Positions 3,088 to 17,912 are shown, numbered from the stretch's first letter. The stretch: 28,740 nucleotides of DNA from Phycisphaerae bacterium (GCA_050184295.1 JBFXAM010000055.1:1-28740), one strand, 5' to 3'. Program-made: numbers and translations. Notes: generated from the sequence alone by a model not told the origin.

Positions 3088-3591
3088 ATGGTCATCCGGC
3101 TCAAACGCCTGGAGAACGGCGTCGTGCTGACGCTCCTGCGCGACGCGGCGGCGCCCGCGGTGCAGCGCAGCGGTCACGGCGGGTTCTTCGCCTTCCACGA
3201 CCTGCTGCACTACGCGGTCGAAACGACGCTCGGACTGCAACAGGCGTTTTACGGTCTCATGGCCGCGGGCAGGGATTTCGAGACGTTCGGCGACCGAAGC
3301 GACCCGCGCTATCGGGCGATGCCCGCGGAAGCGCTCTTCGCCGAGCAGCTCGTGGACGTGCTCGCTCGGCGGCTGGGAGACCCCGCTCGCCGCGACGCCG
3401 ACCTGTGGGAGCTTTGGGTGGGCGAAGTGAACGACGAGTCGGCGACAGTGCTGGCGGGCACGGAGTTCGCGGATCGCCGGCTCGAGCGCGATGAGCTGGC
3501 GGAGATCGCGCGACGCTTCGACGTGCTCGCGCAGCGCTGGGCGGAGACGCCGCTCGGCGGACATCTCGAGCTGCTGTGGCCGGGCGTATGA
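3088..3591 (+). CDS. Hypothetical protein (167 aa)
   Basis: ORF 2968..3591(+) trimmed to ATG 3088 (MVIRLKRLENGVV...). The Arg-rich upstream part looks like non-coding GC noise. The composition is coding-like and there is no TM segment or signal peptide. I recognise no family. Confidence 0.5.
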   Translation: MVIRLKRLENGVVLTLLRDAAAPAVQRSGHGGFFAFHDLLHYAVETTLGLQQAFYGLMAAGRDFETFGDRSDPRYRAMPAEALFAEQLVDVLARRLGDPARRDADLWELWVGEVNDESATVLAGTEFADRRLERDELAEIARRFDVLAQRWAETPLGGHLELLWPGV

Positions 3592-3772
3592 GCGGGTCAC
3601 GCGCCGGACGTGGGACGGACGCGTGACTACAACTCGCGCACGCGGTACGCAAGGCGCCGGGCTGCTGCGCGCGTCGATCAGAACTCCGTGAGCGGGTGTG
3701 GAGCCGCTTGGCCAACCCCTCACGTCGTGGGTTCCGTGGGGCGCGCGCAGCGCGCCGTGACGACGCCGGGCG

Positions 3773-4198
3773 TCAAGGGGCTGGCAGCACGGAGATATTC
3801 GATCCGCACTGATTCCAGCCGCCCGGCTCGCGGCGGTAGATGTCGACCGATCGCAGCGGCAGCTCCTGTTCCGCGCCGCTGTCATCGGTGTACCAGAAGC
3901 GTGCGACGTAGAACACCACCGCGAGGTCGCCGTGGACCGCAATGTCGTGGTCCGTCAGTTCGTAGCGCGTTCCGCGGAAGTGTCTCAGCGCGTCATCGGC
4001 GGCCTGCATGTAGGCGTCGAGACCGCGCACCATGGCCGTGCTCCGCACCTGAAAGCCGCGCCAGTCGGTCGTGTGGCCGCGGCGGATCGTCTCGCGGTCC
4101 TTGTCGACGAACGCGCGAAACAAACGATGGATGTGCGCCAGAATCTGCTCGGCGTCGGTCGGCGTCGCGGCCGTTGAAGCCGCAGAACTGTCGGTCAC
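3773..4198 (-). CDS. SnoaL-like / NTF2-fold protein (DUF4440 / ketosteroid-isomerase-like), 141 aa
   Basis: ORF 3773..4303(-). Start assigned to GTG 4198, which is preceded by AAGGAG with a 7-nt spacer (minus strand aaggagcgagctcGTGaccgac). The protein has NTF2-like motifs: ILAHIHRLFRAFVDKDRETI, DIAVHGDLAVVFYVARFWYTDDSG and LRSVDIYRREPGGW. Confidence 0.7.
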   Translation of the reverse strand: MTDSSAASTAATPTDAEQILAHIHRLFRAFVDKDRETIRRGHTTDWRGFQVRSTAMVRGLDAYMQAADDALRHFRGTRYELTDHDIAVHGDLAVVFYVARFWYTDDSGAEQELPLRSVDIYRREPGGWNQCGSNISVLPAP

Positions 4199-6712: not shown

Positions 6713-9700
6713 CTATGGCCCGCCGCCCGCCGCCCGCCGCAATCCTCGGCGCAGCTCCTCCCAGACAACCGGATCGGTGTTTCCGGGGAACTCCACGACC
6801 GGCAGAAAGCTCACGGGCCGCGCCGGGCGTGCGCCGGCCCGCTGCGCGAGTTCCGTCCCGACCACCGCCATGAAGTAGCCCTCCGCGTGGCCGGACTTCG
6901 CCGCCGCTTCGCGCGCCAACTCCAACCACCCCATGTCCTGCTGAAGCCGCCGAACCAGCTTCAGCCGCACCGACGCCAGCGGCCGCAGCGGAGCGCCGTC
7001 GGCGCGCGGCGGATAGAGCAGCGCGCCGGTGTCGGCCTTCTCCCACGCGGTCGGCTTGCCGAGCGACTCCGTGAACTGCACGCCGCGCGCTCCCGCGAGG
7101 CGCGACGCCCAGCCCCACTTGAGCAGCGCGGCGAAGCCCAGCTCGGGCTCGACCGCGCCGCCGTAGGTCCACACTTCGCCGAAGCGCTGCGGGTTGGCGG
7201 TGATGGTGTAGCTCTTTTGAAAGAACGCGCTGTTGAGCAGCGAGAGCTGCACGAGCCCGTCGAGCGTGTCGCGCTGCAGCTCGGGCGCCGCGAGGTCGGC
7301 GCGGACTCGCAGCGGCGCGTCGGACCCCGCGAGCGCCTCGCGATAGGCGCCGAGCCAATACGCGAGCGCCTGGAAATCGTCATACACCTCCGGCTGGCCG
7401 AGCATCCACCAGGTGCTGCGCTCGCCGGCCGCGGCCCGGTTCACCAGGAGCATCTGGAAATCGGTGCGCCGCCAGTTCCGCTCGCGGATGTGGGCGGCGA
7501 AGTCGCGCACCGTCTGCTGGATCGCGGCGCGGTACTCGGGCGCGAGCGCGTCCTCGATCGGCCAGACCATGTACGAATCCATCGTCGGGTTGGCCGGGCC
7601 GGGCGTGCGGACCTCGGTGCGCGTCGCGCGATAGTGATACTTCCGCGCCAGCGGCGCGTTCGCAGCGGCGCGGTGGTACCGCAGCAGCGCCGGCCAGTTC
7701 TCGTGGATGGGCAGATAGAACTGCGCCAGCGGCACAGCCTCGCGCGGCAGGTCGCGAAACGCGTCGCCGTTGAAGTAGCGCGCGAAGCGCTCGTCCCACG
7801 CGCTCCAGTCGAAACGCGGCGCGCCGTCGACGATGGTCATGTCCGGCGCGAAGCCGTCATAGATCGTGCCATCGGAGCGATAGGGGACCACCGCCAGCGT
7901 CGCGCGGTGCTGCTGCGTCAGTCGATAGCACGCGTCGAGCAGCTCCCACGAATCCGGCGAACCGTCCTCGAAGCCCCACCGCGGACCCGGCGGCGCATAG
8001 GCCGTCAACGTCGCCGCGAATGGCGTCTCATTGGGCAGCGTCGCCGGCGTCACCGTCAGTTCGACCGGCAGGTCCAGCTCCGCAGCCCCGTCGCGCGTCA
8101 CGATCAGCCGACAACGCCACACGCCCCGTTCCGCGCTTGCGGGTACCGTGATTTCCGTCCAGATCGCCTGCACGACGCCGCGCGGTGCGGGCTGCGTCGC
8201 GGCCGGCGCTGTGGCGGCCGGGTCGTCGGGCGCGGCTGCCTCGTCGGGCGGGCCGGCGATCGGCTGCGTCGCGGTGAGCGGAAGCAGGTCGAGCACGAGC
8301 GGCGCGCCGGATTCGATCGGCGTCAGCCCGTCGGGTGCGTACTTGTCGCGTCCCAGGCGGCTCTGCGAATAGTGCTGACGATAGAACTGCACGCGCGGCT
8401 GCGGGGCGGCGGCGCCCGGCGACTGCCACTCGGCGAACATGACGCGATACGCGCCCGGACCGCCGGAGAGCACGACCTGGAAACTCACGACTTCCTTGCG
8501 GGCGGCCTCCAGGGTGATCGGTCCGCGCGTCGGATGCCACCAGCACTTCCGAGCCGTGCGAATCCAGCGCCCGTCGAGACTCAATGACGCCGAGTCGTCC
8601 ATGGTGAACGAACTCGTCCACGTCTGCGGCAGATCGAAACGCTCCAGCGTGGGGAAGTCGATCTTCGGGTTCGACGTCACTGGCGGCGGCAGTTCGACGC
8701 ACACGGGCACGGACCACACGCCGCCGCTCTCGATCGCGCGCGCCGCGACAAACCGATGCCGTGCGGTGCGGTGCATCGTCAGCACCGCCGCGGACGCGTC
8801 GCCGCGACGCACGGGGGGCGACGGCAGCGCCCAGATCGGCAGCTTCGTCGCGCTCGCGAGGTCGGCGGCGCCGCGGATTTCGCGCTCGCTCAGAAACACC
8901 TCGACGCCCAGCGCACCCGGCGCACGCCAACGAACCCATTCGAGCCCGAGCGTGTCGCGCGACGCTGACACCTCGGTCGGCGCGGCGGAAGCGTGAGCCG
9001 CGGCGCGCCGCGCTTCCACCACCAGCTCCGGCGGATCGTCGGACTCGCGCGAGAACACCGCCGGCTGCGTCTGCCCGCGGCCGAAGTCGTCCGCGAGCGC
9101 CAGCCCGCCGAGCTGTACGCGCTGCACCAGCGCCTGCACCAGCGCCGGCGGAACGTCGATCTCGTACCAGAGCGACTTCGCGTCGAAGCGCGGCACGACC
9201 GCGGCCCAGTGCGAGCCGCCGTTGCCGAACACCGCGTCGGTCACGTCGCTGCCGACGTACGCCCACGCCCGAGCCTTGTCCGGCTCGGGTGCGTATGCGG
9301 CGTAGCTGAAGCACGCGCTGCCGGGCTGCGGCTTGCGCTCGGCGCCGGTTCCTTCGACCCATTCCGTGGCGATCGTGCTCACGCCGACGCGCACGAGCAG
9401 CTCGTTCGAGCGCCGCACGCGGAGCACGGCGCGGGTGACTTCCCATTCGGGCGCGGCGTCGGAGTCTCCCGCGCGGCGCAGCGCGCTGAGATCGAACTGA
9501 AAGAGTCCGAAGCTGGCGCCGCCGAGAACGTCGATTCGGTCGCCCCCGCCGTTGTTCACGTCGCGGCCGTTGGGCAGGGCGCTGAACACGGCGGTGTCGG
9601 CCGTCACGGGACAGGTGAACAGCTCGTGACCGGGCTGTGTCGCGGTCAGGCTCGGTGGCGGGCGTGTGGAGCCTGGAAAGTCCGCGCCCGGCGGTGTGCC

Positions 9701-9955
9701 GGACGGTCGGTCGGGGAGGATCGCGGGGCGCGTGGCAGGGCCGCGGCGCACCGGCTCGTCGAGCGTCGGCTGCGCATGGCTGCGTGCTGCGGCGCCCACG
9801 ACGAAGATCGCCGCGACGCACGCCGCGAAACGCGCGGACGGGCGCACGACGAGAGTCACGCCCGGACGCGCGGCGCCGCCGCTTCCGGCGGCATCCGGGA
9901 ACACGTCACGCCACGATTTCGCCCGCGCCGCTCCACCGTCGCCCGACTGGATCAT
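6713..9955 (-). CDS. Large secreted protein (about 1080 aa) with a DNRLRE-like module; possible carbohydrate-active enzyme
   Basis: ORF 6713..10108(-). The first ATG is 9955 (MIQSGDGG...). In-frame GTGs at 9859 and 9847 would give a classical signal peptide (V/M-RPSARFAACVAAIFVVGAAARSHA). The motif FGLFQFDLSAL...VTRAVLRVRR resembles the DNRLRE carbohydrate-binding-like module. The long Trp/Tyr-rich remainder has no family I can name. The composition is coding-like throughout. Confidence 0.7.
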   Translation of the reverse strand: MIQSGDGGAARAKSWRDVFPDAAGSGGAARPGVTLVVRPSARFAACVAAIFVVGAAARSHAQPTLDEPVRRGPATRPAILPDRPSGTPPGADFPGSTRPPPSLTATQPGHELFTCPVTADTAVFSALPNGRDVNNGGGDRIDVLGGASFGLFQFDLSALRRAGDSDAAPEWEVTRAVLRVRRSNELLVRVGVSTIATEWVEGTGAERKPQPGSACFSYAAYAPEPDKARAWAYVGSDVTDAVFGNGGSHWAAVVPRFDAKSLWYEIDVPPALVQALVQRVQLGGLALADDFGRGQTQPAVFSRESDDPPELVVEARRAAAHASAAPTEVSASRDTLGLEWVRWRAPGALGVEVFLSEREIRGAADLASATKLPIWALPSPPVRRGDASAAVLTMHRTARHRFVAARAIESGGVWSVPVCVELPPPVTSNPKIDFPTLERFDLPQTWTSSFTMDDSASLSLDGRWIRTARKCWWHPTRGPITLEAARKEVVSFQVVLSGGPGAYRVMFAEWQSPGAAAPQPRVQFYRQHYSQSRLGRDKYAPDGLTPIESGAPLVLDLLPLTATQPIAGPPDEAAAPDDPAATAPAATQPAPRGVVQAIWTEITVPASAERGVWRCRLIVTRDGAAELDLPVELTVTPATLPNETPFAATLTAYAPPGPRWGFEDGSPDSWELLDACYRLTQQHRATLAVVPYRSDGTIYDGFAPDMTIVDGAPRFDWSAWDERFARYFNGDAFRDLPREAVPLAQFYLPIHENWPALLRYHRAAANAPLARKYHYRATRTEVRTPGPANPTMDSYMVWPIEDALAPEYRAAIQQTVRDFAAHIRERNWRRTDFQMLLVNRAAAGERSTWWMLGQPEVYDDFQALAYWLGAYREALAGSDAPLRVRADLAAPELQRDTLDGLVQLSLLNSAFFQKSYTITANPQRFGEVWTYGGAVEPELGFAALLKWGWASRLAGARGVQFTESLGKPTAWEKADTGALLYPPRADGAPLRPLASVRLKLVRRLQQDMGWLELAREAAAKSGHAEGYFMAVVGTELAQRAGARPARPVSFLPVVEFPGNTDPVVWEELRRGLRRAAGGGP

Positions 9956-10311
9956 CGTTCTCACTCGCTTCGCCGCTCCAGGCCTGGACCCGCGAGCAAG
10001 TGTACGCGTGGCGGTCCAGTGCAACCAAGTGTGCGGCGCCGCGCGTGCGATCCATGCCGTCTGTGGAAGCGCGGAGCGCCGCCGAGTCGGGGCGCCTCTC
10101 CGACGCACGTCGTGGACAGCGCGTCGCGCTCGCGCTGGGGGCTGGGATCGGTCGGGGGCGCGGTGTAGCCGGGCGGAAACGGCGGCGGCGGCCCGACGGT
10201 CGTCGCTTCGCGCGTGAGGGGTCCGCGCTTCGCACGATCGCCGCGGCCGCCGGCCGCCTTGCTGGGTTCTTCCGCTGCGAGCGCGCGTGGGTCAGTCAGG
10301 CACGCGCGTCG

Positions 10312-11442
10312 TCAGCAGTTCTGTTGCACCTCCTTTCGAATCAGGCTGCCAAACTGACCCATCAGGTCGCCGGGGCCAAGGACGAAAGTCGCCTTGGCGT
10401 TTCCGAGCACGTCCTGAATCACCTCAAGCTCCTTCAGCCGCGCGAGCGCCGGGTTCTCCGCCAGCAGCCGGGCGGTGTTCGCCTGGTTGCGGATGGCGGC
10501 GGTCTCCTCGCGCCGCTTGATCAGGTTCGCCTGGGCCTGCTTCTCGGCCGCGATGACCTGGTTGAAGAGCTCCTTCATGTCGCCCGGCAGAATGACGTCG
10601 CGCAGTCCGATGCTGCGGAGCGCGACGCCGAACTCCGCCGCCCGCCGCGCGAGCCCGTCGCGCAGCTCGCGTCCGACGCTGTCCTTGTCGGCGAGCAGCG
10701 CGTCGAGCGTCCGCACACCAATTACGCCGCGCAGCACGAGCTGCGCCTCGCGATAGACGGCCTGTCCGACGTCGCCGACGGCGTTGACCGCAGTCAGCGC
10801 GTCGGCGATCTGCCAGCCGACGAGCAGGTTGATGCGCAGCGTGACCTTGTCGCTGGTCATCACGTCCTGGCCGTTGATGTCGCAGAGCTGCTCGCGCCGG
10901 TCGAGCTTGCGATGCGACAGCTTGCTGCCGGTCTTCCAGTAGACATACCGGCCTTCGCGCAGCACCTCGACGAGCACGCCGTCGCGGTAGACCAGGGCTT
11001 CCTCGTTCGCGCCGACGTCGATCATCTCGAAATACGGCGCGACGCCGGGCAGGGTCAGCAGCGCGTCGCGCTGCGGATGCTCGAAGCGGCCCGCGCCCGC
11101 GACGAACTTCTCGACGTGCAGCCGATGCGCGGTCCGCCAGAACGCGTGGCGGCCCGGTCCGAGCACGCACGCGAGCCGGTCGTCCTTCCAGACCAGCGCC
11201 CGCTCGCCGTCGCCGAGCGCGACGACGAGCAATGCGCGCTCGGCGTCGGCGTGTGCGACGATCACGTCGAGCAGCGGGTGGATGAGGCGCGGCTCCAGCG
11301 TGCTCATGACCTCGACCTGGTCGCGCTTGCTGAACAGCCGGGTCCAGAAGCGGTACTTGCCGGGCGCGAGGATGCGCCGGAAGTCCCCGTGACGGAACCA
11401 CAGGCCGCGCTCATGAAGCTTGATTCGAACCGTGATCGACAT
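10312..11442 (-). CDS. SPFH/band-7 (slipin-like) domain protein with an N-terminal duplicated ~60-aa repeat, 376 aa
   Basis: ORF 10312..11493(-) trimmed to ATG 11442, preceded by GGAGG with a 6-nt spacer. The C-terminal ~210 aa form an SPFH domain (VTLRINLLVGWQIAD...GVRTLDALLADKDSVGRELRDGL...LRDVILPGDMKELFNQVIAAEKQAQANLIKRREETAA...ATFVLG). The N-terminus has two copies of a G(x)YxFW/ALV(W/Y)(K/R)D(D/G) repeat. No TM helix is present. Confidence 0.8.
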   Translation of the reverse strand: MSITVRIKLHERGLWFRHGDFRRILAPGKYRFWTRLFSKRDQVEVMSTLEPRLIHPLLDVIVAHADAERALLVVALGDGERALVWKDDRLACVLGPGRHAFWRTAHRLHVEKFVAGAGRFEHPQRDALLTLPGVAPYFEMIDVGANEEALVYRDGVLVEVLREGRYVYWKTGSKLSHRKLDRREQLCDINGQDVMTSDKVTLRINLLVGWQIADALTAVNAVGDVGQAVYREAQLVLRGVIGVRTLDALLADKDSVGRELRDGLARRAAEFGVALRSIGLRDVILPGDMKELFNQVIAAEKQAQANLIKRREETAAIRNQANTARLLAENPALARLKELEVIQDVLGNAKATFVLGPGDLMGQFGSLIRKEVQQNC

Positions 11443-11521
11443 CGTTTTCCTCCGTACTTCCAGTACGGCGCGGCCGGGCCGCACTGGGCACATTCATGTT
11501 CTCGGAGCTTCGCTCCGAACC
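11443..11521 (-). promoter_or_regulatory. Structured 5' leader of the SPFH gene: two hairpins, the second pairing with part of the Shine-Dalgarno sequence
   Basis: Minus-strand RNA: GUUCGGAGCGAAGCUCCGAGAAC forms a long hairpin. CCGUACUGGAAGUACGG forms a 7-bp stem with a 3-nt loop. It is immediately followed by AGGAAAACG-AUG, so GGAGG overlaps the 3' arm of that stem. Confidence 0.35.
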
Positions 11522-11818
11522 CAACACAACAGTTAGACAACACCGACGCGACCGGGCGCCGCGGCGAGTCGTTCCGGCAATAAACGCCGGGGAGAGGATG
11601 ACGCCCGCGAGATCGGCTGCGACAGATCCGCAGCGGGAGCGTTGCGGAACCCTGCGCTGGAGCGGTACTCGGGGGTCCGCCCGCGCCCCCCCGCGCGGCG
11701 CGGACCCGTTTCCCGTCACATTGCGTATCGTTCACGCTGAGCTCACAGGGCCGCGGCCCGTCGCCGACGCGTCGAAACCCATTCCTGCGGATCGTGCTTC
11801 GACCGCCGGGCGCCGCCT

Positions 11819-11931
11819 CGCAAAGCTCATCCTCTCCTTCCGGCTCGAACTGGCATCCAACCAGGTGCCCTAATGGGGGGCATGGGGAATCGAACCCCGG
11901 AGTTCCCTTGATGGGGGAACGGCGGCTTTGC
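11819..11931. other. Cluster of four adjacent hairpins with 7-nt loops, enclosed by the inverted repeat GCAAAGC/GCTTTGC; one hairpin is tRNA T-arm-like
   Basis: Plus-strand coordinates: CTGG-CATCCAA-CCAG (11850-11864); TGCCC-TAATGGG-GGGCA (11866-11882); GGGG-AATCGAA-CCCC (11884-11898), whose reverse complement GGGGUUCGAUUCCCC looks like a tRNA T-arm; and GTTCCC-TTGATGG-GGGAAC (11902-11920). The flanking inverted repeat is cgcaaagc (11819-11826) and gctttgc (11925-11931). The element lies inside a 1.15-kb non-coding region. No complete cloverleaf can be drawn. Confidence 0.4.
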
Positions 11932-12154
11932 CGGCCGGTTACACGCTGTGGCCGGAACACACGTCGACAAGTCGCGTGGACGTCGAGTGCGCCGCCAGCA
12001 CGGCGTCGGTAAAACCCAAGTCCATTCACGCGCGATCGACGCGAGGTCGACTCGCGCTCGCCACAGGCGCGGCCCTCGCAATCCGCCACGCCAGTGGTCG
12101 GGCGCGGTGCGCGCACCGGTTGCACCGGAGCGGCAGCAATCGCTCGCGAGTCCA

Positions 12155-12186
12155 ACAAAAAACCCCGCGGGGGGTGACCCGCGGGG
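12155..12186 (-). terminator. Rho-independent terminator on the minus strand
   Basis: A 9-bp perfect GC stem (CCCCGCGGG / CCCGCGGGG, 12163-12171 and 12178-12186) with a 6-nt loop. On the minus strand it is followed by UUUUUUGUUGG (plus-strand A-run 12157-12162). It lies about 450 nt downstream of the uvrC stop. Confidence 0.65.
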
Positions 12187-12633
12187 CTTCGAAGTTTCAT
12201 CGAAGTCCGACGATCACCCGGGAGGTGCGTTGGAATTACCGATGGACGCGGCCGTCAACGACGGCAGTATGAACGGGCATACAACGCGCCCGTACACACT
12301 TTGCCATCGGACGTGCCGATCGCATAGTTCCATGTGTTTCGTCGGTTTTGCGAACACGATGTTTGATTCCTTAATCCGCCGACACGCGCGGAGGCGCTCG
12401 GCATACGACGCAGAAACGACCGCTCGGCCGTCTGTGGTGAGAAGTATACAACAGGATGCAGCCGAGTCAAGAAATTCGCGGAATATCGCGTCGCCCGGCG
12501 GGCACAACCACGCCGCGGCGCCGGCGAAATCATGCCCCAATCGCCGGCGCGCGGGTTGGGGCCCGGCCCGTGCGGCTCCTGTCGAAGGCGCGCGCCAAAT
12601 TCCGGGGGGCGCACGCACCCTTCGCGAACGCGC

Positions 12634-14139
12634 CTACTCCTCCAACTCGACGTCGGGAAGCTGCGACGCGTCCGCATCCGAAATCGGCGGCGCGTCCTCG
12701 GCGGGATCGGAGCCCGCAGCGCCGGTGGTCCTCCCGCGCCGCCGCGCCGGCGGCCGTTTGCCGGTGCGGACTTCCTCCTCGAACGTTCGTTTGCGGCGCA
12801 GAATCTTGTGATAGTGCTGGCCGAAGCGGTGGGCCTCGTCGCGAATCTGCTGTAACAGGCGCAGCGCCTCGTTGTGTCGCGCCAATCTCAGCGGTGCCGA
12901 CTTCGCCTGCGCATAGATGATCTCCTCGCGCTTCGCGAGCGAGACGACCATCGGCGGCGTGACGGCGCGCCCGCCGTCCGCCTCGATGCCGCGCCGCATG
13001 CGCTCGAATGCGTCGAGCGCGGCGTGGAGCTGCCCGAGGCCGCCGTCGATCAGAATGACGTCGGGGTAGAGCTCCTCCGCAACCGCGGCGTGCCTGTAAC
13101 GCCGGGCGATCACCTCGCGGATCATCGCGTAGTCGTCGACGCCCGCGACGGTCTTGATCCGAAACCGCCGATAGCCGCCCTTGAACGGCTTGCCGTCAAT
13201 GAAGCAGACGAGCGACCCGACCGAGTCGTCGCCGTGCAGCGTGGCGATGTCGATGCCTTCGAGAATTCGCGGCGGGGCAGGCAGCTCGAGCAGCTTCTGG
13301 AGCTTTTCGAGCCCGGCCCGCGGATCGATGAAGAACACCTCGGGCTGGACGTCCTCGGCCACGTCGCCGCTCAGCGACAAGGACTGAATCGCCTGGATGC
13401 GGTCGCGGAGGACGGCGGCGTCCTCGAAGCGCCGTTCGCGGGCCGCGGTCTCCATCTCGTGCGTCATTTGTCGCAGCAGCGTGCTGCGCTTGCTGTGAAG
13501 CAGCTTGATCAGGCGCTGGATGTCCTCGAGGTATTTCTCGCGCGGGATCAGGTCGGCGCAGGGCGCCGTGCACTGGTTGATCGCGTGCAACAGGCACGGA
13601 CGGAAGAACCGCCGCTGCGGATCGTCGGCGCGAATCTCGAGCTCGCACGTGCGATACTTGAACACGCGCTGCAAGGCGTTGACCGCGTCGCGCACGCCGG
13701 CCGGGTTGGTAAACGGCCCGAACAGCTTGCTGCCGCGGACGCGCGGCGCGCGAGTGACGTACACGCCGGGAAAGTCGTCGCCGGTCGTGATCTCCAGATA
13801 CGGAAAGCTCTTGTCGTCCTTGAGCCGATCGTTGAAGGGCGGCTGGATGTCCTTGATGAGCCGGTTTTCGGTCAGTAACGCGTCGACCTCGGTCTCGCAA
13901 TCAAGAAAGTCGATGTCCGCGGCGAGGCTCGCCATGTGCGCGATTTCGGGGCCGCGGGTCGTGAGCAGGTCGGCCGAGTCCTGGAAGTAGCTCGCCACGC
14001 GCGGGCGCAGCTCGCGCGCTTTGCCCACGTAAAGCACGCGCCCGTCCGCGTCCTTCAAGAGGTAAACGCCCGGCGAGCGCGGCAGGAGCGCGATCTTGTC
14101 GCGGAGCTTCTCGATTCGCTCGTCGGGCGTGCTCGCCAT
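12634..14139 (-). CDS. uvrC: Excinuclease ABC subunit C (UvrC) lacking the C-terminal (HhH)2 domain, 501 aa
   Basis: A GIY-YIG nuclease domain is present (GVYLLKDADGRVLYVGKARELRPRVASYF). So are a UVR domain (RRFEDAAVLRDRIQAIQSL) and a UvrC RNaseH-like endonuclease domain (ILEGIDIATLHGDDSVGSLVCFIDGKPFKGGYRRFRIK; YPDVILIDGGLGQL). The protein ends in a charged low-complexity tail (KILRRKRTFEEEVRTGKRPPARRRGRTTGAAGSDPAEDAPPISDADASQLPDVELEE) where helix-hairpin-helix motifs would normally sit. Confidence 0.85.
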   Translation of the reverse strand: MASTPDERIEKLRDKIALLPRSPGVYLLKDADGRVLYVGKARELRPRVASYFQDSADLLTTRGPEIAHMASLAADIDFLDCETEVDALLTENRLIKDIQPPFNDRLKDDKSFPYLEITTGDDFPGVYVTRAPRVRGSKLFGPFTNPAGVRDAVNALQRVFKYRTCELEIRADDPQRRFFRPCLLHAINQCTAPCADLIPREKYLEDIQRLIKLLHSKRSTLLRQMTHEMETAARERRFEDAAVLRDRIQAIQSLSLSGDVAEDVQPEVFFIDPRAGLEKLQKLLELPAPPRILEGIDIATLHGDDSVGSLVCFIDGKPFKGGYRRFRIKTVAGVDDYAMIREVIARRYRHAAVAEELYPDVILIDGGLGQLHAALDAFERMRRGIEADGGRAVTPPMVVSLAKREEIIYAQAKSAPLRLARHNEALRLLQQIRDEAHRFGQHYHKILRRKRTFEEEVRTGKRPPARRRGRTTGAAGSDPAEDAPPISDADASQLPDVELEE

Positions 14140-14208: not shown

Positions 14209-15141
14209 CTACTCCTCCGCGCCCACGATCTTGCCCGGCGCGCCCACGACCTCCGTCGTCGCCATCACATCGAGGATGCCGTTGATCTCCGCGCGGAAGA
14301 ACCACAGGCACGGGATGTTCGGAATCCGCATGACTTCCTTGCGATCCTGGTCGATCACCACGAGGTGCCCGGCCCCGAACAGCGCGATCATCTCGAGCAG
14401 GTCGGGCCAGTCGAGCCGCACCCGGTTGGAGTAGAGCGGCAGGTTCTCGCTGGCGCGCAGCATCCGGCGGTGCGTCACTTCGCGCGAGCTGATCTCGTGC
14501 CGTCCGTCGAAGAGCGAGTGCACGACGACGACCGCCAGCAGGATCAGCAGCAGTTCACAGAGGGCGCGCACGGTCCCGCCGTCGATCGCCACGCCCAGCG
14601 AGCTGAAATGACCGTACAGCCAGCCCAGGACGGGAAGCTGGAACCGCGCGTTGAGCAGGGCCCCGAGCGTCAGGATCAGGGCCGCGACCAGAATCCACAC
14701 CAGCCCCGTGTCGCGGCTGATGTCCGAGCCCATCACGATCAGCACAAACACGATCGTGAACAACCAGATCCACCCCAGCACCCCGGGATCCCCCCAGCCC
14801 AGCCAATGGAGCCCCAAGAGGAAGTACCCCACGACGACGATCGGCCACACGTAGATCAGGCTCGAAAAACTCGTGAAAGTCACTACCTGTGAGCCTTGCT
14901 TTACGCCCACCCGCACGACCATCAGCCGCGCCAGCCACAGCAGCGGCATCAGCGGATAGCGCAGCAGGTTGCCGATTGCCGCGAGCGCACCGCCGCCCGC
15001 CGGCGCGGCGGCGCGGCGCGCTCCGGACGACCAAGGCGCGCCCGGCTGCGGCGCACTGGACGCCGGCGCCGCCGGAGGGCCGCCGCCCGCATCGGCCGTC
15101 GGTTTCTCGAAATCAGCACGCTCGGGCGAAGTGCCTGACAT
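14209..15141 (-). CDS. Integral membrane protein (4 predicted TM helices) with a C-terminal soluble domain of ~100 aa, possibly bacterial PH-like; 310 aa
   Basis: ORF 14209..15432(-) trimmed to ATG 15141, preceded by AAAGGA with a 5-nt spacer. The TM helices are LIYVWPIVVVGYFLLGLHWLGWG, VLGWIWLFTIVFVLIVMGSDI, LVWILVAALILTLGALLNARF and LLLILLAVVVVHSLF. The C-terminal domain includes LFGAGHLVVIDQDRKEVMRIPNIPCLWFFRAEINGILDV. The N-terminus is an Ala/Pro/Gly-rich cytoplasmic segment. Confidence 0.65.
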   Translation of the reverse strand: MSGTSPERADFEKPTADAGGGPPAAPASSAPQPGAPWSSGARRAAAPAGGGALAAIGNLLRYPLMPLLWLARLMVVRVGVKQGSQVVTFTSFSSLIYVWPIVVVGYFLLGLHWLGWGDPGVLGWIWLFTIVFVLIVMGSDISRDTGLVWILVAALILTLGALLNARFQLPVLGWLYGHFSSLGVAIDGGTVRALCELLLILLAVVVVHSLFDGRHEISSREVTHRRMLRASENLPLYSNRVRLDWPDLLEMIALFGAGHLVVIDQDRKEVMRIPNIPCLWFFRAEINGILDVMATTEVVGAPGKIVGAEE

Positions 15142-15473
15142 GGCGGTCCTTTCATGTGCACAACCCGGTGCAGCACGCATGTCGCGCGGCCACGACCCGC
15201 CCGCGGCGTACCGGCCCCGGTCGAACAGCGTCTGCGCACTATGCAATCCCGCTCCAGCGTCGGCGATGATAACTCGCCGCCGACTTTTGAACAGCCACGG
15301 GCCGCTGGCCCGCTGCACACCCGACGCCGCTGGCCGTACGCGGGCGGGCGCTTCGGGCGTGAAGAAAACCGCAGGCCGACGGGTTCGCCGCCGGCCTGCG
15401 CGAGAGTTCCGAACTTCGACGATCGCAAACACGCCACGGGCGAATCACCCGCGACGCTTCGGACCGATCATCC

Positions 15474-17912
15474 CTACGGACAGCCGTTGTTGACGACGCA
15501 CGCGACGAACGAATCGATGTCGAAGTTATTGGCCAGACCGTCGCCATTGGTGTCGCAACGGCAGACTCGGCACGCCGGATCGCCGCCGCAGAACGTGTTG
15601 ACGTACGCCGTTTCGTCGGTGAGCGCGAGCACGAACGCATCGATGTCGAAGTTGTTGACCACGCCGTCGCCATTCGCGTCGCCGACGACGTGACCGGCGC
15701 ACGGATCGGCCGAGCCCAGCGCGACGTCCATCCCGTTGAAACTGGAGCTGATGCCCGGGTTCAACGAGAAGTAGTCGGTGCTGCTGTTGTCGGCCAGCGC
15801 CGCGATGTCGGCGGCGTCGACGTCGCCGTCGTTGTCGGTGTCGAGGTCGAGCACGTCGACGTAAACGCGCGGGAGCGGGGCGGTGCTGCCCGCGAACTGG
15901 CCGAGGTACAGGTTGCGGTCGGTGCAGAGCGCCATCTCACGGCTGGTCTGAAGCGACATGCTCAGGTCGATCGAGCGGACAAAGTTCGGTCCCTGAATGT
16001 CGATAACCGACAGCAGCGACTGGCTCGTGCTCGTGCCCGAATCGAAGGCCGATTGGAGCACGAACAGATAGGGTGCGATGGTCGGGTTGTACTCAACCTC
16101 GACAAAGCGCGAGCCGGTGGCCGCGGTCGCGGGGATGTTGATCAGCACGCTGATCACGCCGCTGGGCACGTCGAGCGTCTGGACATCCAGCGTATTGCCG
16201 ACGCCGTAGACCGCCCCGACGACCGTGTCGTCGTCGAGCCACGCGGTGCCCTGCGTGATGCCGGTGTTGCCCCAGAAGTTGAACTCGGCCGCGCCGGTGA
16301 TCGACGCGCCCGTGCCCGTGCCGGGCGTTGCGCCGGCGTTGTAGTCGAGCACATAGAGCGAGCCGGTGTCCTGGCCCCAGACCGCGATGCGCGAGTTATT
16401 CGGGCTGACGCTGAGGCCGCCGGTGCGCGTGCAATCGATGCCGCCGAGCAACGTGTTGAAGCGGTAAATCAGTTCGAGCGTGTCGGAGCCGTCGGTCGAC
16501 AGATTCCAAAGCCCGCCGCCTTCCTGCGGACGGAGCGGATCGACACACGAGGGCGAGCTGCCCGGTGTTCCGCCGGCGGCGCCGAAGTTCAGCGCGAGCA
16601 GGTTGCCGTTCGGACTGTGTGCGAACGGTCCCGTGCGGTTGTCGAACTCGACCGACTGGAGGAAATCCGCACCCGTCCAGGCGCCAACGAACGCGCCGCC
16701 GCGCGCCAGGTGGACGGCGCCCGGTCCGGCCGACGAATAGCCGACCGCAACGTCGCAGCCTTGAACCGCCGGCGCCGGAATCGGGCAGGGATTCGTCGGG
16801 CCGCAAGCGACATTGTCGCCGACGTAGAAGCCGCCGCCCGCAACGCAGTCGGCCCGCGTCTGAGTCGTGCACATGCCCGCGTTGCAACACGCGCCGGTCG
16901 GCTGCGGACAATTCGCCTGGGCACAGGTCACGTTGTCGCCGGCGTAGGTTCCGCCCTGCGCATCGCAGTCGCCCGGCGACTGGCCTTCCATGCACGAGCC
17001 GTTCGGGAAGCAGCACGCGCCAAAGCGGTTCGACGGGCAGTCGCCGAGGTTGCAGATCGTGTTGTCCCCACCGTAGGTGCCGCTCTGCGTCGCGCAGTCG
17101 GCGGCGGTGGTGACCACGCAGAAGCCGTCCGCGAGGCAGCAGCGACCGCTGCAACCCACCTGGTAGTTCGCGTTGCCGGGATCGAGCGTGAGCGCGCTGG
17201 GGTCGCCGATGCCAATGCCAGCCCAGCCAAAATTGCTGGTCGGGCTCCAGTTGTACGGACCCGGGCTCGCGCCCGTGACCTGCCCGCCGGCCCATGAGCC
17301 GCTCGCGATCGGGCGACCGGTGTTGCAGTCGATCAGACGGTAGAGCGCATGCGGCGTGTGCCCGACGAAGCCGAGCGCCGTGCCGCCGAGATCGTCCGCA
17401 TACTCAAACTCGTCCACGCCCGCGGTCTCGGCGAAGCTGACCGCATCGACGACCGTGAAGCCGGCGAGCGGTCCGTCCAGCGCGCCGTCGTTATTGGCGT
17501 CGAGGTCCGTGGCCACCGCCGGGGGCGTACCAAAGCCCAGCACGTATGTGTTGGTGCCGTTCTCAATGTCCGGGCTGAAGTCAAGAACCTGCACGTTCGT
17601 CGCGGGCGCCGGCGCGGGGCTTAGAACCGTCGCCGCATCCCGGCGGAGAAACAAGCCGTTGGTGCCGAGCGACTGTCCGCTGAGATCCAGAACCTGGTCG
17701 ACGACGCCGCCGCCCGTGCCGTCCCCCTCAATCACGAGCACGTAATAACCGGTGAGGCCGAAACCGGCCGGTCCACCAAGCTCGATGTACTCCTGCCCCC
17801 CGTCGGTGCCGGGCGGATTGAAGAAAACCTCGCTCAGGAACGGCTGCGTGCCGGCGAGGGCCGCACCGACGAACAGCGATGTGCAACATAACACCGCAAG
17901 CATCTTTCGCAT
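15474..17912 (-). CDS. Secreted multidomain surface protein (812 aa): signal peptide, lamin-tail domain (LTD), three tandem 6-Cys modules, a beta-rich region, and C-terminal dockerin-like Ca-binding repeats
   Basis: ATG 17912 is preceded by AGGAGG (aggaggaaactgtttATG). The signal peptide is MRKMLAVLCCTSLFVGAALAGTQP. The LTD motif is FLSEVFFNPPGTDGGQEYIELGG. The Cys modules are G(R/A)CC...C...DC...GG(T/F)Y.GDN..C....CP, repeated three times (nt 16779-17147). The C-terminus carries DTDNDGDVDAADIAAL, DANGDGVVNNFDIDAFV and DTNGDGLANNFDIDSFV (dockerin type-I-like). Confidence 0.85.
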   Translation of the reverse strand: MRKMLAVLCCTSLFVGAALAGTQPFLSEVFFNPPGTDGGQEYIELGGPAGFGLTGYYVLVIEGDGTGGGVVDQVLDLSGQSLGTNGLFLRRDAATVLSPAPAPATNVQVLDFSPDIENGTNTYVLGFGTPPAVATDLDANNDGALDGPLAGFTVVDAVSFAETAGVDEFEYADDLGGTALGFVGHTPHALYRLIDCNTGRPIASGSWAGGQVTGASPGPYNWSPTSNFGWAGIGIGDPSALTLDPGNANYQVGCSGRCCLADGFCVVTTAADCATQSGTYGGDNTICNLGDCPSNRFGACCFPNGSCMEGQSPGDCDAQGGTYAGDNVTCAQANCPQPTGACCNAGMCTTQTRADCVAGGGFYVGDNVACGPTNPCPIPAPAVQGCDVAVGYSSAGPGAVHLARGGAFVGAWTGADFLQSVEFDNRTGPFAHSPNGNLLALNFGAAGGTPGSSPSCVDPLRPQEGGGLWNLSTDGSDTLELIYRFNTLLGGIDCTRTGGLSVSPNNSRIAVWGQDTGSLYVLDYNAGATPGTGTGASITGAAEFNFWGNTGITQGTAWLDDDTVVGAVYGVGNTLDVQTLDVPSGVISVLINIPATAATGSRFVEVEYNPTIAPYLFVLQSAFDSGTSTSQSLLSVIDIQGPNFVRSIDLSMSLQTSREMALCTDRNLYLGQFAGSTAPLPRVYVDVLDLDTDNDGDVDAADIAALADNSSTDYFSLNPGISSSFNGMDVALGSADPCAGHVVGDANGDGVVNNFDIDAFVLALTDETAYVNTFCGGDPACRVCRCDTNGDGLANNFDIDSFVACVVNNGCP

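Follow-up and report, generated by a model that had tools for sequence, protein, structure and literature searches.

The closest described relative of the locus reported here is a predicted module that joins a tRNA associated with Band-7 (b7a-tRNA), a Band-7 protein and RtcB. Burroughs and Aravind predicted this module in 2016 from comparative genomics and, as far as a 2018 preprint goes, it was then without experimental validation (bioRxiv 10.1101/312249). In Pseudomonas aeruginosa, a gene for an SPFH protein lies inside the rtc locus (PMC13086221). In Anabaena, the slipin gene alr0740 belongs to the TrcR regulon: a trcR mutant derepresses it together with the trn tRNA array and rtcB, and chloramphenicol stress was also reported to raise its expression (PMC10272220). 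Our literature search found no work that ties a slipin or SPFH protein to a leader peptide or to an RNA motif. Here we analyze a locus that gives handles on this module and on the role of slipins in the cytoplasm of bacteria: the 1.19-kb spacer (positions 11443 to 12633) between a slipin gene and uvrC, both on the minus strand, in the metagenome-assembled genome of an uncultured Phycisphaerae bacterium (Planctomycetota; GCA_050184295.1, JBFXAM010000055.1:1-28740). The contig is 28,740 nt long, and we refer to the whole of it as the window.

Several kinds of regulatory leader are also relevant. Leader-peptide attenuators include those of trp, his and pheL, and leaders that sense translational stress include the mycobacterial whiB7 upstream open reading frame (uORF), bmrB-bmrCD of Bacillus subtilis, and PA5471.1-armZ of P. 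aeruginosa. Peptides that arrest the ribosome or are slow to terminate include TnaC (Pro-stop), SecM (..RAGP), the RAPP-type peptides ApdA and ApdP, the EF-P-dependent PPG and PPD motifs, and the mgtL and mgtP leaders with their proline codons.

We think it probable (roughly three chances in four) that the spacer is a composite 5' leader of the slipin gene, in which a ribosome-dependent attenuator is followed by a structured RNA motif, which we call R1, and by a tRNA-like element; the whole would be the local form of the Band-7/b7a-tRNA module, which comparative genomics ties to RNA repair by RtcA and RtcB. A first-pass annotation, made from the sequence alone, had flagged the spacer as a non-coding kilobase with a candidate structured RNA. 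Our results bear out the first point and support a functional, structured RNA sequence here. It had overlooked a small open reading frame (ORF) that ends in Pro-Pro-Gly-stop, as well as R1, which lies just upstream of the hairpins that it did flag. The parts of the leader and the two genes that bound it are as follows.

12634 to 14139, minus strand: uvrC, recognized by its Pfam matches
12443 to 12470, minus strand: predicted sigma70-type promoter, TTGACT-N16-TATACT
12214 to 12372, minus strand: leader uORF of 47 codons, with AAGGA at 12372-12368 and a GTG start at 12357
12187 to 12205, minus strand: small hairpin CUUCGA-UGAAACU-UCGAAG, between the uORF stop and the terminator
12152 to 12186, minus strand: intrinsic terminator with a 9-bp GC stem, a 6-nt loop, U6 and GUUGG
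11932 to 12006, minus strand: R1, a motif of about 75 nt with nested helices (the full covariance-model match spans 11922-12031)
11866 to 11920, minus strand: truncated tRNA-like element, in the slot directly after R1
11655 to 11725, minus strand: block C, which includes the GC-rich hairpin GGGUCCGC...GCGGACCC
11585 to 11614, minus strand: block D (UCCUCUCCCCGGCG), a local peak of identity to the nearest relative
10312 to 11442, minus strand: slipin / Band-7 (SPFH) gene of 376 amino acids (PF01145, E = 5e-25)

All of the functional elements between 11443 and 12633 are on the minus strand. GC content is equal at all three codon positions from 11450 to 12630, and the flanking genes are periodic (0.9/0.4/0.7). 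The long ORFs of the spacer have no match in Pfam, and when a 287-amino-acid ORF on the plus strand was compared to 5.8 billion proteins, its sole homologue was the equivalent spurious ORF of the sister genome. The drop in GC at about 12200-12500 that the first-pass annotation had noticed is real, but at 0.57-0.59 (versus 0.68-0.75 in the flanks) it is slightly shallower than the estimated 50-55%.

We compared nine lineages: the window and the loci L084, L090, L091, L093, L174, L176, L178 and L180. (Metagenomic slipin loci were drawn from a sample of the Joint Genome Institute, or JGI, limited to 600 candidate stretches.) The nearest relative, L084, has a slipin that is 89% identical and a UvrC that is 88% identical to those of the window; the two loci are collinear, and L084 has a spacer of 1.1 kb. 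The synteny comparison that the first-pass annotation had proposed showed no break in L084 at the junction of the SPFH gene and uvrC. Between these two genomes, 21-35% of the four-fold degenerate sites in the flanking genes are different, and four parts of the spacer align without gaps at 90-100% identity, namely blocks A (12490-12150), B (12025-11825), C (11725-11655, about 90%) and D (11614-11585). The promoter, the end of the uORF, the terminator and block B all fall within this range of identity. In the other seven lineages, the slipin is 59-64% identical and the upstream genes are unrelated to those of the window. Nevertheless, all nine lineages (slipin 59-100% identical) have in common a gene-free leader of 0.9-1.2 kb with a single order of elements. 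Because the slipin keeps its leader in lineages with different upstream genes, we assign the leader to the slipin. Conversely, we searched 80 Phycisphaerae uvrC loci with blastn, nhmmer and the R1 model and found none of the spacer elements and no synteny shared with the window. (The exact DNA pattern of block B gave 0 matches in JGI metagenomes.) The whole leader is linked to the slipin and not to uvrC, and the anatomy and conservation of every one of its parts are directly observed.

The proximal part of the leader, block A, has the layout of an attenuator: a promoter, a uORF with a start codon and a ribosome-binding site, and a terminator before the regulated genes. This layout is found in all nine lineages. 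The promoter has 10 of 12 consensus matches in a scan for which 0.1 sites are expected in shuffled sequence. In L084, both of its hexamers are unchanged (100% identity) and the spacer between them varies, and TTGAC[AT]-N16-17-TATA[CT]T lies upstream of the uORF in 9 of 9 lineages. Transcription is predicted to start near 12436.

The uORF ends in CCU-CCC-GGG-UGA, or Pro-Pro-Gly-stop (12225-12214). The frame is open in both the window and L084, and across all 47 codons the substitutions between them are spread almost evenly over the codon positions (13/14/17), so we rejected it as a normal protein-coding gene. We reinterpreted it as a leader peptide because the constraint is limited to the C-terminus: the last 8 codons have 3 synonymous and 0 non-synonymous changes, and the body (codons 4-40) has 5 synonymous and 20 non-synonymous changes. 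Since only the C-terminal codons are conserved and the body is free to change, no codon periodicity is seen over the uORF as a whole. Furthermore, every one of the 9 lineages has PP[G/D]-stop at a distance of 50-60 nt ahead of the terminator's U-run, with an in-frame start codon after the predicted transcription start. The C-termini are NSNAPPG-stop in the window and L084, APGPPG-stop in L090, GGHPPG-stop in L091, GELPPG-stop in L093, GVGPPG-stop in L174, DTGPPG-stop in L178, IGRPPG-stop in L180, and, with aspartate in place of glycine, GAGPPD-stop in L176. Synonymous codons are used for the prolines and the glycine, and each of UGA, UAA and UAG occurs as the stop. In dinucleotide shuffles, the chance of PP[G/D]-stop at that position is 3e-4 to 9e-4 per lineage, and of the four lineages that we fetched after the pattern had been defined, three matched it exactly. 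In Humisphaera borealis, a relative that is in culture, the layout recurs: ...QPPR-UGA is followed by a hairpin and a terminator. In more distant slipin loci, the stop codons of ORFs cluster 50-64 nt before the U-runs of strong terminators just upstream of R1, and the peptides often end in Pro or PPx (PPR-stop, APP-stop, AP-stop, SP-stop, RP-stop or VP-stop). As judged from these alignments, the pattern of changes shows that the end of the uORF is constrained at the level of the peptide. We infer that the uORF is translated and that ribosomes pause at PPG-stop.

The terminator, CCCCGCGGG-UCACCC-CCCGCGGGG followed by U6 (12186-12157), begins 27 nt after the uORF stop and is present in all nine lineages. 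The first-pass annotation had recognized this hairpin and taken it to be the end of the uvrC transcript. The terminator itself is real, but that role does not fit, as block A has its own fully conserved promoter about 165 nt past the uvrC stop and the terminator travels with the slipin, also in genomes that have uvrC at another place. The small hairpin that precedes it lies within a stretch that is 97% identical in L084, and an equivalent hairpin is predicted in most lineages. We also observed that the GUUGG (UUUUUUGUUGG; 12152-12162, minus strand) after the U-run is kept in most lineages (L084, L090, L174, L176 and L178), which is more conservation than the tail of a terminator needs.

When the 3' arm of the terminator is withheld, minimum-free-energy folding predicts that the 5' arm pairs with the PP[G/D] or stop codons in 8 of 9 lineages. 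In the window, the 5' arm and loop pair with the Gly and stop codons (positions -3 to +9); more precisely, in the window and L084, GGGUGAUCG pairs with the loop UCACCC and the half of the 5' arm that is distal. In six further lineages, the PP[G/D] codons are the partner.

These features suggest attenuation of the trp type as the most likely mechanism. Transcription would start at the sigma70-type promoter (12470-12443), and the first 280 nt or so would act as a ribosome-dependent attenuator. The end of the uORF, Pro-Pro-Gly-UGA, would be slow to translate and slow to terminate, and its last codons could pair alternatively with the terminator's 5' arm and loop to form an antiterminator. A ribosome that keeps pace with RNA polymerase would park on PPG-stop and hide the antiterminator strand, which would let the terminator form and stop transcription. 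If translation lags, or if the ribosome stalls earlier, then the antiterminator would form and transcription would read through R1 and the tRNA-like element and on across the remaining leader into the slipin gene. Termination would thus be conditional under this model, with normal coupling leading to termination and lagging translation to read-through.

Like the leaders of trp, his, pheL, whiB7, bmrB-bmrCD and PA5471.1-armZ, the slipin leader has a promoter, a short uORF, and a terminator before the regulated genes, and alternative pairing over the end of the uORF is predicted. It differs in that what the uORF keeps is a C-terminal Pro-Pro-Gly/Asp-stop (with Arg in H. borealis), and not a run of regulatory codons for a single amino acid, and in that the regulated cargo begins with structured RNAs instead of a protein-coding gene. 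As in TnaC, SecM, ApdA, ApdP, mgtL and mgtP, the peptide is short and only a proline-rich C-terminal motif at or near the stop is conserved. However, the motif here, G-x-x-P-P-[G/D]-stop, is not RAPP, RAGP or W..P, and stalling at it is a prediction.

Alternatively, block A (12436-12152) could be a free-standing small RNA that is about 280 nt long and acts in trans, with its C-rich CCUCCC as an anti-Shine-Dalgarno motif; the uORF would then be incidental and the adjacency to the slipin due to chance. Block A does have its own promoter and terminator, its fold is more stable than those of shuffled sequences (z = -3.7), seven of its pairs are compensated relative to L084, and it has some likeness to small RNAs with CCUCC motifs (27.7 bits for anti-hemB and 26.8 bits for ar14). 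But these scores are driven by the terminator and are far under the Rfam gathering thresholds (49.5 for anti-hemB and 58.8 for ar14; sX13 scores 13.9 versus 50), and the body of the RNA is conserved across lineages in neither sequence nor length (172-326 nt). What is conserved is the frame that ends in PP[G/D]-stop, with synonymous variation and with all three stop codons, which implies a signal at the level of translation, and CCUCCC is exactly the two proline codons. We consider a free-standing small RNA unlikely.

Downstream of the terminator, in the 5' part of block B, lies R1. We aligned twelve lineages as a seed, predicted a consensus structure with RNAalifold, and built a covariance model from the seed. 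(E-values from this model are rough because the calibration was shortened.) The structure has 24 pairs, of which 13 show compensatory changes. In the seed, 90.3% of cells are paired, as compared to 30-47% if the partners are slid, and the covariation score is 0.41, as compared to at most 0.12; none of 500 shuffles reached the observed values. The model finds R1 in the window with 89.6 bits (E = 1e-25) and has exactly one match, on the same strand as the slipin, in each of 68 slipin loci (E = 1e-25 to 8e-3); it also matches H. borealis with 48.8 bits. In contrast, nothing scored above 15.9 bits in 0.9 Mb of control Phycisphaerae DNA. In an alignment of 69 sequences, 23 of the 24 pairs have double changes and 90.3% of cells are paired, versus 31-43% in the slid controls; because the sequences were aligned by fitting them to the model, such counts are tilted in favor of the structure, yet the difference is very large. 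The median distance from the end of R1 to the slipin start is 493 nt (480 nt in the window). The covariation, which the first-pass annotation had proposed to look for in related intergenic regions, shows 11932-12006 (R1) to be a structured RNA motif, insofar as aligned sequences can. R1 had no match at the gathering score in Rfam 15, in the window or in four relatives, and none in a relaxed scan of this stretch of the window; it is absent from Rfam 15 and was previously uncatalogued. We had also considered by eye a sigma54- or ECF-type promoter in block B and dropped it: its hexamers are not conserved and lie inside the covarying helices.

Directly after R1 comes the hairpin cluster that the first-pass annotation had picked out, and its four hairpins with 7-nt loops are where it had placed them.

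11920 to 11902, minus strand: hairpin 1, GUUCCC/CCAUCAA/GGGAAC, anticodon-arm-like, with compensatory changes in the stem
11898 to 11884, minus strand: hairpin 2, the T arm, GGGG/UUCGAUU/CCCC, invariant in six lineages
11882 to 11866, minus strand: hairpin 3, UGCCC/CCCAUUA/GGGCA, with compensatory changes in the stem
11864 to 11850, minus strand: hairpin 4, CUGG/UUGGAUG/CCAG, with its helix shifted in L084 and of uncertain status
11813 to 11826 and 11925 to 11938: bracketing inverted repeat, 79% complementary and poorly conserved in L084

The fold of the cluster is no more stable than that of shuffled sequence (z = -0.28), and the inverted repeat and hairpin 4 are poorly kept in L084. The cluster stands above chance because of its conservation: across six lineages, the T arm is unchanged and hairpins 1 and 3 have different but compensating stems. 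The derivation of the T-arm hairpin from tRNA is supported as well. We view hairpin 1, the invariant GGGGUUCGAnUCCCC and hairpin 3 as a truncated tRNA-like element, which is present in the window, L084, L090, L176, L093 and L178. In L093 and L178, it comes after a full-length tRNA-like copy.

In other slipin loci, the same slot is occupied by a clearer tRNA-like gene. ARAGORN calls a same-strand tRNA that ends 200-900 nt (mostly 300-500 nt) upstream of the slipin in 46 of the 66 metagenomic loci with enough upstream sequence, and in 42 of 67 R1 loci the call lies at an offset of about 0 after R1. Most of these tRNA-like genes share one sequence backbone, whatever the anticodon, and their terminal acceptor pairs are mismatched. 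Their anticodons include A34 types (aag, aat, att, atg, agg and agt), which are abnormal in bacteria, some are called "Ser" or "Leu" without a long variable arm, and some have "anticodons" of 2 or 4 nt. The tRNA model of Rfam matches L091 (53 bits) and L093 (50 bits), but only across model positions 3-68. In all 26 of the remaining R1 loci, which have no ARAGORN call, a T-arm hairpin (4-bp/TTCRANN) is still there; across the 68 loci, the T arm is universal in the slot after R1. The T arm usually lies 39-59 nt after R1 in the loci without a call and 21-25 nt after it in the window (23 nt), L084 and L090. The shorter distance implies that the window's element is about 25 nt shorter and lacks the 5' strand of the acceptor and the D arm. 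Indeed, neither an acceptor stem nor a D arm is present in it; of the canonical features of a tRNA, the T arm alone fits, and both 7-nt loops have C at position 33.

The window's element lies a few hundred nt ahead of the Band-7 start, where the conserved slot is, and its membership in the b7a-tRNA class is positional and partial. As in the b7a-tRNA module, to the extent that the accessible description covers it, a tRNA-like RNA precedes the slipin/Band-7 gene on the same strand; relatives have a clear tRNA-like gene in the slot, and three of them have RtcA, which lies just downstream of the slipin (L120, L122 and L180/L181). Unlike in that description, the window copy has neither a D arm nor the 5' strand of the acceptor, fails tRNA models, and has no RtcA or RtcB nearby. 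The parts of the published description that we could check do not include R1 or the uORF-terminator unit. Thus, the PPx-stop attenuator and R1 extend a system that, as far as those parts go, is known but unvalidated. A similarity to YrlA and other bacterial Y RNAs is that a tRNA mimic with a T arm is joined to an additional structured stem domain in a neighborhood of RNA repair. By contrast, we found no match to the Y-RNA or YrlA models of Rfam and saw no Rsr gene, and the helices and conserved bases of R1 differ from those of the Ro-binding stem.

We also observed tRNA arrays of up to 19 genes, on the same strand and upstream of R1, in about twenty loci. In L117, L119, L131-L134, L136, L139, L142-L144, L156-L158 and L167, such arrays have 5-19 tRNA genes and directly precede R1, the b7a-tRNA and the slipin. 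The order ...His Trp Thr Arg Arg Arg Cys recurs. The arrays look like the horizontally spread "L-arrays" of cyanobacteria, physically attached here to the slipin module.

Alternatively, R1 and the tRNA-like element might form an independent non-coding RNA, a Y-RNA-like tRNA mimic expressed from its own unrecognized promoter, with the uORF-terminator unit serving only to insulate it from uvrC read-through. No other parts of the leader are conserved as widely as these two (68 loci); in the loci with tRNA arrays, R1 comes directly after the array and we noted no uORF-terminator unit; and Y-RNA-like tRNA mimics are known beside RtcB (bioRxiv 10.1101/312249). However, neither a consensus scan nor inspection by eye found a sigma70-like promoter between the terminator and R1. 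Also, a strong terminator lies at most 150 nt upstream of R1 in the 9 Phycisphaerae-type lineages and in at least 18 other loci, with the stop of an ORF at a fixed distance, which points to a functional unit rather than an insulator. This explanation seems improbable to us, about as much so as the small RNA.

A near-perfect T arm beside an anticodon-arm-like hairpin, with no 5' half, is also what a decayed tRNA gene would leave, and the first-pass annotation had suggested that the cluster might be the attB/attL scar of an excised element. We think it very unlikely that the cluster is a functionless remnant of this kind, whether a decayed tRNA or the attL/attR scar of an integrative element. 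The truncated element, with its invariant T arm and compensatory stems, is shared by six lineages whose slipins are only about 60% identical, and it lies beside the slipin in unrelated gene contexts. The window has no full tRNA and no flanking direct repeats, no integrase-like domain was found among the ORFs scanned with Pfam, and the region is collinear with L084. The other early suggestion, that this long, structured and non-coding region is a divergent RNase P RNA or tmRNA, has very little left to recommend it, as has 6S RNA or (given that the 47-codon frame is uninterrupted in the two close genomes) a pseudogene or small protein: ARAGORN found no tmRNA, Rfam gave nothing at the gathering score, relaxed Rfam scans of the window gave only noise driven by the terminator or the T arm, with none of these families better than chance in the spacer, the best match in the clan (8.5 bits) was to the T arm alone, and the frame has evenly spread substitutions and no protein homologues.

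Several points weigh against the composite slipin leader. In the window, the transcription start, the translation of the uORF and the conditional termination are all predictions. The antiterminator is weaker in the window and L084, where it is shifted onto the Gly-stop codons and the terminator loop, and minimum-free-energy folding predicts no antiterminator in L093. The PPG codons resemble the 3' arm of the terminator, so part of their conservation could be at the level of RNA. In the distant loci, the last residue is proline in 37% of cases versus 11% of controls, but with n = 19, this is suggestive only. If R1 and the slipin had their own promoter, then block A could be a separate gene. ARAGORN found no tRNA in the window, RF00005 had no match there even at E <= 10, and an nhmmer profile of 43 proximal tRNA-like genes did not match the window's cluster (the profile has only 50 states, so this is a weak test); homology of the element to the Band-7-associated tRNA rests on its position and its T arm. 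Finally, we found no RTC or RtcB domains among the 19 ORFs of the window that were scanned.

Even with these points in mind, we prefer the composite slipin leader. The conserved leader peptide of a stalling type, together with the terminator, suggests that the module is switched on by impaired translation, which agrees with the up-regulation of the Anabaena slipin in the trcR mutant (with rtcB and the tRNA array) and under chloramphenicol. R1 and the tRNA-like element may be processed, possibly into a stable RNA partner of the system, and the module may have a role in the response to RNA damage. That the "tRNA" has shrunk to an anticodon-arm-like hairpin and a T arm and yet is conserved points to the T arm, not decoding, as its functional core. 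As to slipin function, R1 is a handle that is supported by covariation and is present once in each of 68 slipin loci, and because the cultured H. borealis has the full arrangement, direct testing is possible.

A more speculative idea, to which we give well under even odds, is that the leader is a two-tier sensor and effector for damage to translation and that R1 is a new family of RNAs, with a protein or ligand dedicated to it. In the first tier, the PPx-stop uORF would report on the speed of peptide-bond formation and termination, and damaged ribosomes or tRNAs would release transcription. In the second tier, the read-through product would be processed into a new stable RNA that joins the R1 domain to a tRNA mimic and that might act with a soluble slipin assembly (and with RtcA/RtcB where they are present) as bait, scaffold or guide in the surveillance of tRNA or rRNA damage.

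The distal leader, between the tRNA-like element and the slipin, also has recurring motifs, (G)GCAGAUACCGACG and CUCAAgCCCGGUUCCGCCG-N-CGGGG. These were seen in the window (11655-11725, minus strand), L090 (2880-2900 and 2975-3005), L174 (2770-2790 and 2885-2915), L176 (2800-2820 and 2900-2925) and L093 (5785-5815), and they may be a third structured element. By eye, block C resembles a GAUACCGAC-type motif in L090, L174 and L176. The regular expression CCGGUUCCGCC for this third, distal motif matched 11 of 77 loci and is too insensitive to use. In L180 only, two tandem copies of a repeat of about 65 nt (GCGUAUGAGGGUGGUACCnGGCUAA...GGAAAGGGCAG) lie just upstream of the slipin (2790-2925). In H. 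borealis (L182), an ORF of 165 amino acids without a Pfam match (3383-3880) lies between the tRNA-like element and the slipin, which recalls the hypothetical gene alr0739 that precedes the slipin alr0740 in Anabaena.

The slipin of the window has GGAGGA 5 nt 5' of its ATG, and has 5408 homologues at E <= 1e-30, several of which are named "slipin family protein" by NCBI. Logan contigs identical to the window are found in SRR27751815 and SRR27751816. On the other side of the spacer, the window's UvrC has only 501 amino acids; its last Pfam match, the RNase H-like endonuclease domain, runs to residue 439, and a C-terminal helix-hairpin-helix domain is not among the matches reported. The tail of the protein is rich in arginine and then acidic. 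ORFs of 1131, 407 and 812 amino acids, without significant Pfam domains, flank the locus (6713-10108 and 14209-17912, minus strand), and the 1131-amino-acid ORF is kept directly downstream of the slipin in L084.

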